Shown: in pieces, positions 6,021 to 11,724 of the stretch | How the letters are laid out: every line of letters begins with the position of its first letter | Position numbering within the stretch: the first letter of the stretch is position 1 | Source: Candidatus Hermodarchaeota archaeon | GTDB taxonomy: Archaea; Asgardarchaeota; Heimdallarchaeia; Hodarchaeales; Hodarchaeaceae | Assembly (NCBI GenBank): GCA_048886185.1 | Contig: JBHLKY010000011.1 | Location: 120,001 to 152,000 of the forward strand | Direction: 5' to 3' | Length of the DNA: 32,000 bases | Notes under the pieces: generated by a model | Seen by the model: the letters and a program-made list of their open reading frames with translations, nothing else | Databases searched by the model: none | Told to the model about the DNA's origin: nothing | Made by a program: the position numbers and the translations under genes

Positions 6021-6740
6021 TTAACCCCGTGTGACTGGTATATATGGCGCAAGTAACGAAGCCAATAAACCAATTTCACGATTTTGGGTATACACAACAC
6101 CTGGGCCAGTATACCGAATTACAATCCCCTCTCCGCCAAGGAAGAAGCTTTTTCTTCCACCAACTTTTGAAGCTCGATGTTGCATATTGCTTTGGAATGC
6201 CATCATCACTCCGTTGTCACAAACAAACTCTTGCCCTGGAGCTAGTTCATGACGCTCAATATATCCATATCCACCCATCCATACATCACCATCACCTTCA
6301 GCCATGATTTTAGTCAGTACAAGGCCTTCCCCACCGAGCACACTCTTAAATCCACCCAGTTTTGACGTAACAGCGATACTCGTTGTTCCACAGATGTAAG
6401 CATCTCTACTTAAAGTCCATTCCTCGCCTTTATCAAGGTGGAGATGTACAATATCGCCAGGAGCACCATGTGCAAAGGCAACCATGCCAGGAGGTGCACC
6501 ATCAGGGAGAGAAAAGAAGTTTTGAAACATCGATTCGCCAGAAAATTTTCTTTTCAAACCACGCATGATTCCACCAGCTGATCTAGTTTCCATATGTATA
6601 TGACCATCCATATAGACCATAGCTCCACCCTCAGCTCGTACTTGCTGACCAGGTTGATCTAAATAGATTCTTACTACAGAGAAGGCAGGACTACCAACGA
6701 TTTCATATTTCAAGAATGATCTATCTTTTTCTGCTGACAT
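6021..6740 (-). CDS. AIM24/TIGR00266 family protein
   Basis: AEGGAMVYMD, GGIMRGLKRKFSGESMFQN, GGEGLV, VDNG-like CDNG, GPGVVYTQNR. Confidence 0.92.
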   Translation of the reverse strand: MSAEKDRSFLKYEIVGSPAFSVVRIYLDQPGQQVRAEGGAMVYMDGHIHMETRSAGGIMRGLKRKFSGESMFQNFFSLPDGAPPGMVAFAHGAPGDIVHLHLDKGEEWTLSRDAYICGTTSIAVTSKLGGFKSVLGGEGLVLTKIMAEGDGDVWMGGYGYIERHELAPGQEFVCDNGVMMAFQSNMQHRASKVGGRKSFFLGGEGIVIRYTGPGVVYTQNREIGLLASLLAPYIPVTRG

Positions 6741-6849
6741 ATTTTCATCTCTTACCGATTAGTTTTCTAAACGAGAATATTAAAATCTCAGTAGAAAGTT
6801 TGATTTTTAAAATATAAACATACCAGACTGATATCAGTTTCTTTTTATG

Positions 6850-6862
6850 CAAAAAAGAAGGA
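6850..6862 (-). terminator. Oligo-T tract, possible terminator of the ARPP-1/wHTH/vWA operon
   Basis: Minus strand ccttctttttt about 35 nt after the vWA stop. Confidence 0.4.
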
Positions 6863-6891: not shown

Positions 6892-8169
6892 TTAAAAAGA
6901 TCGCCTTTTTCGTAGATCATACATTACAGAACGTAATTTCTTCCGAGATCCTTTGGTGTACCTTTCTTCACTCAACACGTTGGATAATATCTGAATATTC
7001 TGTTCTTGTAAATTCTTAAGGCTTACTGATCCCCCAGTTTGAGAAATCTGCGAATCAAGCTTTTCTTGAAACTTGTGCATGGTTCTTTGAGCTCCAGAAA
7101 AATCTCCCCGATCGGCCATCTCCATAGCTTCATATTGGACAAACGCAGCTTCTAATAGATACACATTCTCTAGGACTTGCTCATTTTCTGTAGCTAATAG
7201 CTGCTCATCTGTAGTATAACTAATGGTACAGGGAATAGTCGTATGAATTGGTTGTGTTGACCCACTTCGAGAAACCCAATGGACATTAAAAGTCATCGCT
7301 TCGATTTCATGATTCTCTGATGAGGGAATGGTAACATCTAGAATAATTAATAATTCATTCCCACTTCTGAGATCACCTACTTTTGTACTATCCGATAAAC
7401 GGTCTTCATAAGGAACTCCAAGTGCTCTTCGGATATGGACACCTTCTGCTTTATGCCATTCAACCTCAATATTATAAGCTGCAGTCGCTAAGAGACCCTG
7501 AAATTCTTTTTCAATGAATTTAGGGATGTCATCCGCTGTTTCTATGAAGTAGAATGATCCACCAGCAGCATCAGCAATATTAACAAGGAGATCCTCATCA
7601 AAATCGTCACCCACTCCGAACGTACTAATACTAATCCCACCCTCATAAATATTGGTTGCATAACCACAAATGCGGTCATGATCAGTGATACCCTCATTAG
7701 CAAGGCCATCTGAAAGAAGTAATAGTACATTACGATACTCTAAATGTTTGGCACCATCAACTTGCTTTGCTCCCTCTACTAGCCCTGAGTGAAGATTGGT
7801 ACGCCCCCGACTACGAATTGAACGGAGTCGGTTAATAATTGAAGCAGGATCGGTTAAATTAGCCGAGGGGAGAACTGTGTCAACACGATGATCGTATATT
7901 GTTAAAGCAAATACATCCTCCTGAGAAAGATTATTTACCACAAATTCGACCGCTTCCTTGGCTTTTTGAAGTTTGGATCCATGCATGCTCCCAGAACGAT
8001 CAAGAACGACTCCTAAATTCAAATTAGTTCTAGGGATAGCGGTTGAGATCTCCTGAGCTGTTAACTTTAGTTGGATGTAAAGATGAGTTTCACCAGTAGC
8101 TAAAGCATAAGGTGAACTAGGGATTACTTCCATTTTAATGTCTTCAATTTCTTCAATTGGCATATTCAT
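6892..8169 (-). CDS. von Willebrand factor A domain protein (YfbK/CLCA-like) with intact MIDAS
   Basis: NLNLGVVLDRSGSM (DxSxS), GRTNL (T), LLLLSDGLANEG (D), ISTFGVGDDFDEDLL..IA..AGG.FYFI, followed by a beta-rich domain and a helical tail (EAMEMADRGDFSGA). Confidence 0.93.
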   Translation of the reverse strand: MNMPIEEIEDIKMEVIPSSPYALATGETHLYIQLKLTAQEISTAIPRTNLNLGVVLDRSGSMHGSKLQKAKEAVEFVVNNLSQEDVFALTIYDHRVDTVLPSANLTDPASIINRLRSIRSRGRTNLHSGLVEGAKQVDGAKHLEYRNVLLLLSDGLANEGITDHDRICGYATNIYEGGISISTFGVGDDFDEDLLVNIADAAGGSFYFIETADDIPKFIEKEFQGLLATAAYNIEVEWHKAEGVHIRRALGVPYEDRLSDSTKVGDLRSGNELLIILDVTIPSSENHEIEAMTFNVHWVSRSGSTQPIHTTIPCTISYTTDEQLLATENEQVLENVYLLEAAFVQYEAMEMADRGDFSGAQRTMHKFQEKLDSQISQTGGSVSLKNLQEQNIQILSNVLSEERYTKGSRKKLRSVMYDLRKRRSF

Positions 8170-8174
8170 CCCTT

Positions 8175-8825
8175 CTACTTTGTTTGTTCTTCCTCCAATT
8201 TGGCTTGCATCATATATACCTTCTCTCCCTTCTTTGTAATTCTAAGACGCTTCTTTGGTCGTCCTGGTCGTTTTAGTGATCTAATTGGGCCTTTAGGTTC
8301 AGCCTTCGCTTGTTCTATCAAACCTAGATTAATTAATTTCTTCAATCCTACATTAATAGTAGTAGGCGAAAGGAGAGCCTTTTCCTGAAGCTCAATAACA
8401 TTCGCATCTTTGTGTTGTTTAATTTGATGGAGAAGAGCACGATGCGATCGTTTAAGCTCTGTTATTTCAGGGTGTTGAAGAAGTTCTCGATCAAGCATGT
8501 CCATGGCTTGTTGGGTAAGAGAAAATTGATTAGAACCAGGTGGTTCGCGAATAATGAAACCAGCTAGCTCTAATTCTTTTAATCTCCTGTAGATAGTAGC
8601 GGTTGTTGGAAATATTACAGAAGATTCAGAATGATAATTTCCTTTCTGTTTTCGTTTCTGGACTACTTTTTCGTATTCCTTTCTTTGTTCTATGAAGTGC
8701 CTGTTGATTTCAACACTAGTTTTTTTAGGATTTTTCCGAAGAAATTTTAGGATTTCTTCGGTCCCTTTTGAAGCTAGTAAATCTAACATTGTTGTAAACC
8801 CATTAGTGCTATTCTGATTCTTCAA
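8175..8825 (-). CDS. Double winged-helix DNA-binding protein
   Basis: wHTH1: LLASKGTEEILKFL...TATIYRRLKELELAGFIIR...FSLT. wHTH2: ALLHQIK..ANVIELQEKALLSPTTINVGLKKLINLGLI...RPGRPKKRLRITKKG. Gaps of 5 and 15 bp to neighbouring genes. Confidence 0.82.
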   Translation of the reverse strand: MKNQNSTNGFTTMLDLLASKGTEEILKFLRKNPKKTSVEINRHFIEQRKEYEKVVQKRKQKGNYHSESSVIFPTTATIYRRLKELELAGFIIREPPGSNQFSLTQQAMDMLDRELLQHPEITELKRSHRALLHQIKQHKDANVIELQEKALLSPTTINVGLKKLINLGLIEQAKAEPKGPIRSLKRPGRPKKRLRITKKGEKVYMMQAKLEEEQTK

Positions 8826-8840
8826 AATCCTGTTCGAGCG

Positions 8841-10154
8841 TTATCTCCTGCTGAACTTGGGATCTTGAATTGATTGAACCTGCATTTGAGGTATTCCAGG
8901 CGCTCGATACACTTTTCTCCCTTTGAGAATATCGACCTGTTCTTTTGTGGCATAGAGATGTATAGGATGGCCTTGATAGTTTAAACTAATACCTTGCCAT
9001 TTTTTACTGTTAAATCGGAATAAATCACCCGTACCTGTCGCATTATCTTTATTCACTTTCAAGTCTTTGAATTCATCTTGGAGAATCTTTTCCAGGTTGT
9101 CGGGTAGCTTCTGATCGGTTTCAACTTTCTGCATAAATACTCTATCAGTGAGAAATCCCTTGAGGACAACCTCACTGAACTGATTCCAAAGCTTCGGAGA
9201 GCCATAAATTTCAACAGCAAGTAACTTGTCCCCATAGGCACAAATAAGACCAACTTGGTTCTCAAGTTTGATACCCGCAGCTAGCGCTTCCTGGAGATTT
9301 TTGAGATCTTCATCTATTTCGTACGACTTTTCTTGGATTTCACGAAAACTACTAGTAGGAGCATCTTCCGCAGCGAGTTGATAGGCGCCCATTGAAGCAT
9401 ATACTGATTCCCAGACAGTGGACTGATCCCCAGCTTTCGCAGAAACATTGGCCATTTGGGGGGCCATACGAGTTTTAGCTGATTTGAATTTTAATGACGT
9501 GGTTACACCACGAGAACTAGAATATCTCCATCGTGACTGTTCAATACATTTGGCGGGAATTTTTAACGGATTAGACTCATTATGACCAATGGGAATGAGA
9601 ATTGGTTCAAAAATTGTTCTATCCTGTTTACCACCCTCAACCTGATGAAGATATGGAATGAGAACTGGATTTTTACTTTTATTTATCGCCTCGAGAATCT
9701 CAACGCTTTCAGATCCTTCCGATTCCTGGATCCAAGCAAGTTCCTGTTCCTCTGCTTCGAGAAGCCCTAATACGGTTAAAGCTACTTCTGTCTTAATCAA
9801 AGGATAAACTGCAAACTTATCCTGAACTACAGGAGTACCGATATCAAAATAACTTCCTAAATCTTGAATTAAAGTTTGAAACTTCACTTTTTTCCACCTC
9901 TTATTTCTTTTTAAAATCTCCTCAGCAGATAGAGTGAGAATAAATCGCTCTGAATTCGTTGGCAATCTAGTAATCAGGTTCAATTGTTCTAATTCCTTAA
10001 CTCTACGATAAATAGTCGCAGTGGTAAGAGATTTATGACCCGATTTCGTGAAATGGGTGTTTATTATGGCAATAGTAATCCCAGGATTAATTCTTAGGTA
10101 AGCAAGAAGATCGATTGTTCCATCTTTTCCGAGAAGATTAGTGAAATTTTTCAT
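8841..10154 (-). CDS. Winged-helix fused to ARPP-1 (DUF6569)-like domain
   Basis: N-terminal ~85 aa wHTH (TATIYRRVKELEQLNLI). The rest matches my recollection of ARPP-1: FAVYPL, IQESEGSESVEILEAINKSKNPVLI, EGGKQDRTI, IPAKCIEQSRW, QSTVW, QVGLICAYG..LLAVEIYGSPKLW. ATG at 10154; an in-frame TTG lies at 10157. Confidence 0.8.
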   Translation of the reverse strand: MKNFTNLLGKDGTIDLLAYLRINPGITIAIINTHFTKSGHKSLTTATIYRRVKELEQLNLITRLPTNSERFILTLSAEEILKRNKRWKKVKFQTLIQDLGSYFDIGTPVVQDKFAVYPLIKTEVALTVLGLLEAEEQELAWIQESEGSESVEILEAINKSKNPVLIPYLHQVEGGKQDRTIFEPILIPIGHNESNPLKIPAKCIEQSRWRYSSSRGVTTSLKFKSAKTRMAPQMANVSAKAGDQSTVWESVYASMGAYQLAAEDAPTSSFREIQEKSYEIDEDLKNLQEALAAGIKLENQVGLICAYGDKLLAVEIYGSPKLWNQFSEVVLKGFLTDRVFMQKVETDQKLPDNLEKILQDEFKDLKVNKDNATGTGDLFRFNSKKWQGISLNYQGHPIHLYATKEQVDILKGRKVYRAPGIPQMQVQSIQDPKFSRR

Positions 10155-10160
10155 CAATTG

Positions 10161-10213
10161 TTATCAAAAAGTGTAATTATTTAAATATTTCGATTTTTAT
10201 CAAAAAGTGTAAT
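10161..10213. repeat. Exact 17-bp direct repeat ttatcaaaaagtgtaat x2 (10161-10177, 10197-10213); candidate operators
   Basis: Read directly from the sequence. Period 36 bp; the copies bracket the BRE-TATA. Confidence 0.9.
10178..10192 (-). promoter_or_regulatory. Archaeal BRE-TATA promoter of the ARPP-1 operon (predicted leaderless)
   Basis: Minus strand cgaaata-tttaaata. The TATA box ends about 24 nt upstream of ATG 10154. Confidence 0.7.
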
Positions 10214-10224
10214 CAATTTTCAGA

Positions 10225-11724
10225 TTAATATTTTTGAGAAAATGATTTTCTTCGTTTAAGAATAATAACTAAAAGTAGGAAGAATACAATTATGGAAGGA
10301 GACTCAAATCCAGGAATGAGATTTGGTGGATTTGACTCATTTTTGTTTTTGGTTTCCTTACTTGTGTTAGTAGAAAGAGTATTCATTGAGCTTGATACAT
10401 CCTCAATAATTGTGCTGGTGATTGAATCAGTGGGGGAATCGATTACTTCAGAGATCTTTAACAGCCATATATCACCATTTCCAGCGCCATATGAACGCGT
10501 CATTCCCACGATGATAAAACTTCCATCCAGAGTCGGAATAAGAGAATAAGCACGATCTATATCTGATCCACCAAAGGTCTGGTTCCATTTGATTGTTCCA
10601 TTACTATAAGTCTTGACAAGCCAGATATCTTCATCACCAGCCCCATAAGATTCAGTGTCACCAACAATAAGGAATCCACCATCAGGAGTCTGAATAACTG
10701 AATGAGCTTGATCATGTCCCAATCCCCCATAAGTTTGATCCCATTCTACAGAACCGTTGGCATAAGTCTTCACAAGCCACATATCCGAATTATTAGACCA
10801 GTAATTTGTTACCCCAGCCAAGAGGAATCCGTCATCAACAGTCTGAATAACATCGAAGGCATAGTCACATCCAGTTCCCCCATAGGCTTGATCCCATACC
10901 ACTGAGCCATTGGCATAAATCTTTACCAACCACATATCTGCATCATGGGGATAAACTGCGGAGTCTACCGAGTAATGATAATCTATCGTCTTACCTGCAA
11001 TAAGGAACCCTCCATCAATCGTCTGAATTATGGAGTAACCACTATCATCCTTTGATCCATAGATCTGATTCCATTCAACAGATCCATTAGCATCAGTCTT
11101 CACCAGCCACATATCCATATTATTAGGACCAGAGTAGTCTACTGTCTCACCTGCAAGGAGGAATCCTCCTTCTGCAGTCTGAATGGCCGAACGAAGAAGA
11201 CTATTTTCATCTGTAACCCATTCTGTTCTTTCAAAATAATAAGACTGACACCATTCTACAGTTCCATTAGCGAATAATTTCAAAGCTGATCCCCTATCGA
11301 GAACAGGAAGCATATATTGAAGTGAAGAGGTGCCAATTAAGAGGAAACCTCCATCCTCAGTTTGGATGAGGTCAGAAGCCCAATCAGTTCCCCAGATGTC
11401 ATAAGTCTGATTCCATTCCGCCGATCCGTTGGCATAAGTCTTTATAAGCCACATGTCACGTTCATCAGTCCCATAAGGACCAGTGGAACCAGCAATGAAG
11501 ATCCCACCATCAGCTGTCTGAATTGCCTTAACAGCAGAATCCGCTTCAAGTCCACCAAATGTGATATTCAGTTGAATTTGAAAAATATCATTATGTCCAT
11601 TCGTAGTATGATAACTAAATAGTATATAGTCATCATTTTCAATGGCTCCCAACCCAAAGAAGTGTAGACTCAGAATAAGAACGACAAGGGCAAAACTTCC
11701 TCCCATCAGTCTCTTTTGGTGCAT
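10225..11724 (-). CDS. Secreted/surface 7-bladed beta-propeller protein with S/T linker and PGF-CTERM-like anchor
   Basis: N-terminal hydrophobic signal, seven ~50-aa repeats (IQTxDGGFLxxG...DMWLVKTxANGSxEWxQxYG), S/T-rich linker, then IPGFE + hydrophobic helix + KRRK. Confidence 0.85.
   Translation of the reverse strand: MHQKRLMGGSFALVVLILSLHFFGLGAIENDDYILFSYHTTNGHNDIFQIQLNITFGGLEADSAVKAIQTADGGIFIAGSTGPYGTDERDMWLIKTYANGSAEWNQTYDIWGTDWASDLIQTEDGGFLLIGTSSLQYMLPVLDRGSALKLFANGTVEWCQSYYFERTEWVTDENSLLRSAIQTAEGGFLLAGETVDYSGPNNMDMWLVKTDANGSVEWNQIYGSKDDSGYSIIQTIDGGFLIAGKTIDYHYSVDSAVYPHDADMWLVKIYANGSVVWDQAYGGTGCDYAFDVIQTVDDGFLLAGVTNYWSNNSDMWLVKTYANGSVEWDQTYGGLGHDQAHSVIQTPDGGFLIVGDTESYGAGDEDIWLVKTYSNGTIKWNQTFGGSDIDRAYSLIPTLDGSFIIVGMTRSYGAGNGDIWLLKISEVIDSPTDSITSTIIEDVSSSMNTLSTNTSKETKNKNESNPPNLIPGFESPSIIVFFLLLVIILKRRKSFSQKY

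Follow-up and report, generated by a model that had tools for sequence, protein, structure and literature searches.

ArnB-type von Willebrand factor A (vWA) proteins control archaeal gene expression, and their route to DNA is not known. The question raised by the locus described here is whether such a protein can act on DNA through a dedicated partner. The locus occupies positions 6892 to 10213 of a 32,000-nt stretch of DNA (the window; positions 120,001 to 152,000 of contig JBHLKY010000011.1, assembly GCA_048886185.1) from Candidatus Hermodarchaeota archaeon, a member of the Heimdall group (Hodarchaeales). Gene 1 codes for a winged helix-turn-helix (wHTH) domain fused to an ARPP-1 domain, gene 2 for a protein with two wHTH domains, and gene 3 for an ArnB-type vWA protein. 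The ArnB-type gene is thus tied to a dedicated DNA-binding protein with a conserved candidate operator and a specific predicted interface. The locus is read here as an autoregulated three-protein transcription-regulatory module with partner masking, to which a probability of about 0.5 is given. Each part belongs to a described family; new are the wHTH partner in place of ArnA, the duplicated wHTH fused to ARPP-1, and the defined operator. No publication on the combination was found in the literature searched, in agreement with an initial annotation, made from the sequence alone, that had proposed the architecture as undescribed. The genome of the host is 4.84 Mb long and 96% complete, and the closest relatives of the window are labelled Heimdallarchaeota or Hodarchaeales. 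For comparison, 100 loci were fetched (L-numbers below), and genomes are given G-numbers.

The product of gene 3 is, according to its predicted structure, a full-length ArnB-type protein with vWA domain, beta-sandwich and C-terminal helical bundle in one chain. The vWA domain was recognized by Pfam (PF00092, E 2.4e-20). The AlphaFold2 (AF2) model, with a predicted local distance difference test score (pLDDT) of 93.4 and a predicted template modelling score (pTM) of 0.91, consists of N-terminal strands, the vWA domain (residues 49-227), the beta-sandwich (229-319), and a four-helix C-terminal domain (330-421). ArnB (8s05_B) was superposed on it with Z 35.9 and a root-mean-square deviation (rmsd) of 3.3 A over 377/380 residues, and further matches were found to 5a8j and 4fx5 with Z 31.5 and 32.5, respectively. 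Foldseek returned ArnB with E 4e-25, and a sequence profile compared with PDB sequences gave E 2e-22. The metal ion-dependent adhesion site (MIDAS) is intact, with D57-x-S59-x-S61, T124, and D154 invariant in 46 homologues. Bacteria commonly have homologues of this length, and in the one bacterial locus read the gene stands alone. Several of the bacterial full-length relatives (P0166, P0169, P0223, P0228, and others) are fused to FHA domains, in Chloroflexi, or to Macro domains; these fusions echo the ArnA-FHA partnership and the link to ADP-ribose, respectively.

In the product of gene 2, Pfam recognized HTH_24 and MarR in the second half (E 1e-8). The first domain, wHTH1, is a paralogue of the N-terminus of gene 1 and has a near-identical third helix, TTATIYRR(L/V)KELE. 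The second, wHTH2, is MarR/HTH_24-like and has a GRPKK wing, the GRP of which is invariant in the family. The stretch KRPGRPKKR in the tail of the protein was considered as an AT-hook and rejected, as the alignment places it in this wing. The family is small (43 clusters), and those members that carry a name are from metagenome bins of Asgard archaea, for the most part with the label Hodarchaeales or Hodarchaeota. In PADLOC-DB 2.0, gene 2 had no match other than to the generic wHTH part of Csa3/CARF models. At residues ~37-60 (window 8600-8680, minus strand), helices of wHTH1 are separated by a basic insertion of about 20 residues (QRKEYEKVVQKRKQKGNYHSESS). It is absent from all aligned orthologues of gene 2, and its residues 54-61 fall in the modelled interface with gene 3.

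The ARPP-1 domain of gene 1 (PF20208, DUF6569) was identified with E 1.3e-40 and 140 bits, against a cut-off of 27, over profile positions 3-296 of 297, and a six-frame search of the genome gave the same result. Gene 1 belongs to ARPP-1 also by the definition of Iyer et al. 2022, because the absolutely conserved Cys and Gln given there are retained. In an alignment of 62 ARPP-1 sequences, which takes in distant members at 17-23% identity to gene 1, the residues G175, G176, Q178, D179, R180, C204, E206, R209, W210, Q245, and W249 are invariant. The motifs are GGKQDR at 175-180 and C204-x-E-xx-RW; near invariance is seen for K177 and for an APTxS stretch at 266-270. The invariant Cys/Gln/GGKQDR set suggests a catalytic role and not mere binding. 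From the Cys/Gln constellation of ARPP, an enzyme that acts on sugar moieties, perhaps through covalent capture, was predicted (Iyer et al. 2022, PMC9503650). Pfam is blind to the N-terminal wHTH, and the fold became visible in the AF2 model, built with 62 homologues (pLDDT 87.5). Residues 1-93 form there a wHTH of the ArsR/PadR/MarR types, with Z ~11.5 and rmsd ~2 A to CzrA, PadR, and HxlR. The matches listed in PDB structure searches with this model fall on the wHTH, and a structure search of the ESM Atlas gave a template modelling (TM) score of 0.84 over 287 residues to ARPP-1 and ARPP-1/HIRAN clusters.

Gene 1 stops early compared with its orthologues (window 8809-8862, minus strand). A conserved acidic tail (SQVQQEITLEQDFEESE and a stop) is encoded in another frame just beyond the point of divergence, and therefore a 1-nt frameshift is placed near the 3' end of the gene. 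Contigs of four DNA runs from one study agree with the window at 8700-9000, frameshift included, and these runs may be the source of the assembly; no RNA run is listed for this DNA. The acidic C-terminal tail was considered as a vWA-specific ligand of the MIDAS and rejected, as similar tails are present on ARPP-1 proteins without a vWA neighbour.

The three open reading frames (ORFs) lie head to tail in the same orientation on the minus strand. They are separated by 15 bp (gene 1/gene 2, with a TTG start of gene 2 at 8825) and 5 bp (gene 2/gene 3). With a start of gene 2 at ATG 8789, the first gap becomes 51 bp, and this start is the likelier one because of the conserved MLDLL N-terminus and a database gene call of 204 amino acids (aa). 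Upstream of gene 1 is a predicted promoter with a transcription factor B recognition element (BRE) and a TATA box, bracketed by two exact copies of a 17-bp repeat. The possible starts of gene 1, TTG 10157 and ATG 10154, are 4-7 nt past the proximal copy. In the orthologues, the promoter core reads CGAAA/GGAAA-N-ATTTAAATA or TTTATAAAT.

The operator pair is conserved at the core promoter of 11 related loci. By promoter alignment and direct reading, every locus with all three genes (layout A below) has the distal site, BRE/TATA, and a proximal site that reaches to within a few bases of the start codon. Direct copies that flank the TATA box with a period of 36 bp were found in the window, L002, L003, L009, L013, L014, and L008, and in L005, L006, and L097 the proximal copy has the opposite orientation. 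The pair is also present in L099, a locus with double wHTH and vWA genes and without ARPP-1, and it is retained in the decayed loci L008 and L014. In G050, a genome of another family, a diverged pair (ACTACA..TTGATAA) is likewise 36 bp apart. The presence of two repeat matches per se is within chance, as 13 of 100 window shuffles reached two at ≤3 mismatches. The exact motif ATTACA-N5-TGATAA occurs at five sites of the 4.84-Mb genome, two of them at the operon promoter, and no second operator pair was found anywhere in it. A wider regulon was considered and rejected, as the three further exact sites are single, have no promoter pattern, and form no other pair. Self-regulation of the operon is thus supported, at the level of sequence, by an operator pair that is kept across orthologues and unique in the genome.

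Each 17-bp site consists of unlike half-sites, ATTACA and TGATAA, which are about 11 bp apart from centre to centre, or one helical turn. This spacing of two unlike half-sites would fit one tandem two-domain monomer per site. Among the operator-bearing loci examined, which are of three locus types, the double wHTH is the one component common to all gene arrangements. It is likely the operator-binding protein and, since the operator pair is also found at loci that hold only double wHTH and vWA genes, a likely autorepressor.

Gene layouts were compared from the coordinates of gene 1, 2, and 3 hits across the class and from reading of the 100 fetched loci. Layout A, with wHTH-ARPP-1, double wHTH, and vWA genes, is intact in G000, G057, G060, G065, G067, G072, G074, G075, and G076, with protein identities to the window down to about 47%. 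Layout B has ARPP-1 without wHTH and the double wHTH, with no vWA gene (G066/L008, G070, G071, G073, and L017). Layout C has double wHTH and vWA genes without ARPP-1 (G058, G061-G064, L098, L099, and, from another family, G050); in these genomes ARPP-1 is elsewhere or was not found. ARPP-1 stands alone in layout D, in Thor and other Hodarchaeales loci (L004, L007, and L018-L020), and follows an ArsR-type wHTH gene in layout E (49 Loki-type loci). The double wHTH adjoins vWA in 15 genomes of the genus, G068 with a broken copy counted, and in G050, and it adjoins ARPP-1 in 14 genomes. The double wHTH is therefore the hub of the locus, and the triad is composed of two pairings that also occur separately, each without the third gene. 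A survey of Asgard and other archaea for the triad had been proposed by the initial annotation. The triad was indeed found in other genomes, all of them in a single genus-level clade, where 9 of 22 genomes have it intact, and it is not spread across the Asgard archaea.

The fusion of wHTH with ARPP-1 was seen only beside a vWA gene (G000, G057, G065, G067, G072, G074, G075, G076, L009, and L013), and ARPP-1 genes without an adjoining vWA gene have no fusion (G066, G071, G061, G063, L004, and L007). G060 was considered as an exception with a short ARPP-1 beside vWA and was rejected, as its contig ends inside the gene. L008 (5800-6010) has lost the wHTH of gene 1 by deletion in place, a remnant frame being left behind promoter and operators that are still intact, and it has no vWA gene. 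A close relative of it, L014 from G068 (L014:2169-5359), has the wHTH detached from ARPP-1 and the vWA gene broken in two. PF20208 itself is present in 174 of 400 Asgard genomes, with 1-3 matches each, and in 15 of the 21 other genomes of the genus. A looser coupling of wHTH and ARPP-1 is general in Asgard archaea. In layout E, a wHTH gene of ~135 aa (Pfam HTH_20, HTH_5) is immediately upstream, on the same strand, of an ARPP-1 gene of 345 aa. This Loki-type two-gene unit was read in L025-L081 (e.g., L025:7567-7971 and L050:7579-7977) and seems to be undescribed. One such pair is in L056 (DATKTW010000013.1), filed as 'Candidatus Nanopelagicaceae bacterium', and is closely like Promethearchaeota contigs in layout and sequence; the contig is probably a mis-binned archaeal one.

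Genes 2 and 3 were chosen for a complex model because they recur as a pair and ArnB is known to bind partners as an adaptor. With gene 3, Mg, and gene 2, the ipSAE score was 0.83, 0.83, and 0.82 in three runs and 0.00-0.02 in three controls. The mark used for this score was reached by 58 of 80 solved complexes and by 2 of 110 mismatched pairs. The runs had at least 91% of contacts in common, and the pLDDT of the partner was at least 74. On gene 3, the modelled interface comprises residues 18-31 in the N-terminal strands of the sandwich, 247-248, 280, and 322-377 in the helical domain. On gene 2, it comprises residues 54-71, the wHTH1 recognition helix with TTATIYRRLK. Simple recall is an unlikely source of the score, because the partner in the solved ArnB complex is a zinc finger and not a wHTH. 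The model supports binding of gene 2 by gene 3; its score favours the contact and is not proof of it. The vWA protein had been proposed as a possible scaffold by the initial annotation, and this role agrees with an ArnB-type adaptor that is modelled to bind the double wHTH.

In the reading preferred here, the double wHTH would repress its own operon from the two sites that bracket the core promoter. Occupancy of these operators should block the TATA-binding protein, transcription factor B, and RNA polymerase, because the sites flank BRE/TATA and the proximal one lies over the expected transcription start. Gene 3 would clamp the wHTH1 recognition helix of gene 2 in the groove between its beta-sandwich and helical domain. 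Since such clamping would hide half of the DNA-reading surface of the repressor, gene 3 could be an anti-repressor or modulator. Gene 1 is the probable input. Its wHTH copy may compete with gene 2 for gene 3 or for an operator half-site, or it may bring ARPP-1 chemistry, the binding or processing of a putative sugar- or nucleotide-containing ligand, to the complex. In the most specific form of this mechanism, an ArnB-type vWA protein acts as anti-repressor, the ARPP-1-fused wHTH copy competes for its clamp, and ARPP-1 chemistry leads to promoter opening by partner switching. This form is tentative and rather doubtful. If true, it would amount to a signalling logic not described before in archaea and would give ArnB-like regulators the link to DNA that is missing so far.

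Several points weigh against the masking module. The MIDAS face lies outside the modelled interface of genes 2 and 3, and the calibration of the interface score is only rough because custom unpaired alignments and a metal ion were used in the complex model. G071 (94% complete) has ARPP-1 and the double wHTH and no vWA gene in the genome, which is hard to explain if wHTH1 purely docks. Because layout B keeps wHTH1 without vWA, wHTH1 is taken here as a genuine DNA reader that would be masked, and not as a docking tag. L102, a locus with ARPP-1 and double wHTH, shows no recognisable operator, and the search of the genome for targets beyond the operon's own promoter found none, so that any output beyond the operon would be conjectural. 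Lastly, the correlation of the fusion with the vWA gene may rest on two or three independent events, because the compared genomes are close kin.

The most serious alternative is a conflict (anti-virus) system in which ARPP-1 would act on an ADP-ribose- or nucleotide-derived signal, with the vWA protein as adaptor and the wHTH domains keeping the operon silent until it is triggered. ARPP originates from predicted antiviral systems centred on ADP-ribosylglycohydrolase (ARG), and its Cys and Gln are kept here (PMC9503650). Patchy presence, modular make-up, and in-situ decay among relatives, all seen in this locus, are hallmarks in the same work. Fusions to Macro or FHA occur among the bacterial homologues of gene 3, one ARPP-1 cluster of the Atlas is commonest in phage taxa, and strict self-regulation without any other regulon site resembles that of self-contained defence cassettes. 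However, PADLOC-DB 2.0 has no match for gene 1, gene 3, or the neighbouring AIM24 gene, and no nuclease, toxin, NTPase, or ADP-ribose-processing gene is in or beside the operon. ARG, rhodanese-phosphatase, Macro/NADAR, and restriction endonuclease (REase) genes are absent from the 32-kb window, with rhodanese-phosphatase not searched genome-wide. The genome has a single ARG gene on contig C20 and a single Macro gene on C1, both off the contig of the operon. The neighbourhood of the locus is constant in several genomes and so is not mobile-island-like, and the spread of ARPP-1 over the Asgard genomes, at few matches per genome, also speaks against a conflict role. The system is therefore unlikely to be of this kind.

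The domain assignments of the initial annotation, the intact MIDAS, the gene order with its gaps, the repeats around BRE/TATA, the T-tract, and the self-regulation proposed from them were all recovered, the last from sequence conservation. Its statement that no ARG or rhodanese-phosphatase gene is in the operon was also borne out. The framing of the locus as a conflict or repair system found no local support among ordinary neighbours at a syntenic position, and the 'chromatin-tethered' variant and the sensing of a modified nucleotide are speculation.

Gene 1 could also be a TrmB-type one-component regulator, with the wHTH reading the operator, ARPP-1 as sensor, and genes 2 and 3 accessory or independent. 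A wHTH with a ligand domain is a standard layout; sugar-containing molecules are a common theme of ARPP contexts, in which an ARPP-WYL pairing also exists (PMC9503650). An ArsR-type wHTH gene is directly before ARPP-1 in the 49 Loki-type loci, and the recognition helix of gene 1, near-identical to that of wHTH1 in gene 2, may read the same half-site. This role is nevertheless quite unlikely for gene 1. Loci in which gene 1 lacks the wHTH (L008) or in which there is no ARPP-1 (L099, G050) still have the operator pair, so gene 1 is not the essential operator binder, and the invariant Cys/Gln/GGKQDR set points to catalysis and not to plain binding. It is very improbable that the three genes are functionally unrelated neighbours held together by shared descent, as might be thought from a triad confined to one genus-level clade of close metagenome-assembled genomes (MAGs) with much of the flanking synteny also kept, because in L003 the triad stays intact with other flanks on either side, the spacers between the genes are very short, a duplicated wHTH is common to genes 1 and 2, pairs of the genes are found again elsewhere in genomes and in another family, and the interface model of genes 2 and 3 scores high against its controls.

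The autoregulated masking module is directly testable, as it needs three small soluble proteins and a DNA of 53 bp. To our knowledge, ARPP-1 is a domain without experimental data. The locus offers it a simple context with one promoter and one partner set, in which its ligand or chemistry could be read as a change of DNA binding. The lineage is narrow and known from uncultured MAGs. The coordinates of the locus are given in Table 1.

Table 1. Features of the three-gene locus in the window (positions of the 32,000-nt stretch)
Feature	Positions	Strand	Remarks
Distal operator copy ATTACACTTTTTGATAA	10197-10213	-	exact 17-bp repeat, directly upstream of BRE; position kept in 10 related promoters
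BRE-like CGAAA and TATA box TATTTAAATA	10178-10192	-	direct reading; predicted archaeal promoter
Proximal operator copy ATTACACTTTTTGATAA	10161-10177	-	exact 17-bp repeat, between TATA box and start codon
Gene 1, wHTH + ARPP-1 fusion	8841-10157	-	ORF of 438 aa; start TTG 10157 or ATG 10154
ARPP-1 domain of gene 1	8949-9845	-	Pfam envelope, residues 105-403
Gene 2, double wHTH	8175-8789 (ATG, 204 aa) or 8175-8825 (TTG, 216 aa)	-	ORF
Gene 3, ArnB-type vWA protein	6892-8169	-	ORF of 425 aa
Oligo-T tract	6851-6859	-	~35 nt past gene 3 stop; candidate 3' end of the transcript

The T-tract behind gene 3 is likely the 3' end of the transcript. T-tracts were seen at the equivalent place behind the vWA gene in L002, L006, L013, L014, and L097, and the remaining spacer is unconserved. 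Neighbours of the operon in the window are genes for an M20 peptidase, two PmbA/TldD proteins, AIM24, a Heimdall-CTERM surface protein, MFS transporters, and a hydrolase. The flanking synteny kept among relatives of the clade includes N6_N4 methylase, GyrI-like, MFS, AIM24, and PmbA/TldD genes, and in several genomes the locus has the same chromosomal position with MFS, AIM24, and PmbA/TldD around it. The AIM24 gene is downstream of the operon in many relatives and was considered as its fourth member. This was rejected, as the gene is absent in L003 and 3 kb off in L005, the conserved T-tract lies between, and its own upstream region is unconserved. A perfect 12-bp palindrome, ACTGATATCAGT, was observed at window 6827-6838, directly upstream of a TATA-like box that belongs to the AIM24 gene (6021-6740); relatives have not kept it upstream of AIM24. 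On the other side of the operon, a protein of 499 aa (10225-11724, minus strand) consists of repeated 'DGGF(L)L(A/I)G...WL(V/I)KT..NG...W' units, and its gene ends 11 bp before the distal operator. It has a weak C-terminal match, below the cut-off, to the Heimdall-CTERM sorting signal and is probably a surface beta-propeller-like protein.

Among known systems, the Sec23/Sec24 core has the same order of vWA, beta-barrel, and helical domain as gene 3, and strands before and after the vWA domain form the sandwich (Z 19-20 over ~380 residues). Gene 3 differs in that its model has neither zinc finger nor gelsolin domain, and these Z values stand against 36 to ArnB. No eukaryote-specific link to Sec23/Sec24 follows, because the family of gene 3 is widespread in bacteria. 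With MarR/ArsR autorepressors, whose operators lie over the archaeal BRE/TATA and the start, the locus shares the wHTH fold, candidate operators that bracket its own core promoter, and a predicted mRNA with no leader or a very short one. It differs from them in having two unlike wHTH domains in one chain and an asymmetric 6-N5-6 site, and in a predicted control by a masking protein partner instead of a small ligand in the dimer interface.

The definition of ARPP comes from ARG-centred systems, for which a role against viral ADP-ribosylation was predicted (Iyer, Burroughs, Anantharaman, Aravind 2022, Viruses 14:1977; PMC9503650). The two-gene and ARG-centred ARPP systems have the same PF20208 domain with its invariant Cys and Gln, and also a link to a transcription factor (ARPP-WYL) or a DNA-binding domain (ARPP-HIRAN). 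In contrast to them, the locus has a wHTH fused in cis, a second gene with a double wHTH, a vWA adaptor, and an Asgard host, and it has no ARG, rhodanese-phosphatase, Macro, NADAR, or REase.

The closest comparison is the ArnA-ArnB module of archaellum repression in Sulfolobus acidocaldarius (8s05, 5a8j; PMC12852372, PMC6509490). The identity of gene 3 to ArnB is only ~19-20%, and the partner here is a double wHTH and not an FHA/zinc-finger protein, with an ARPP-1 protein added. An ArnA-type partner was not found, because FHA (PF00498) has no match in the 96%-complete genome, and the Sulfolobus control was matched. In the ArnB module, the C-terminal helical domain is phosphorylated by ePK kinases under PP2A control, whereas the window has no kinase or phosphatase gene and phosphorylation sites are not evident. 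For ArnA and ArnB there is no sign of direct DNA binding, and other DNA-binding proteins were proposed to act downstream (PMC12852372). Gene 3 has the same three-domain build and MIDAS as ArnB, and both proteins are in gene-regulatory circuits. ArnB receives the zinc finger of ArnA on its beta-sandwich and C-terminal domains (PMC12852372), and it is on this same surface that the double wHTH of gene 2 is modelled.

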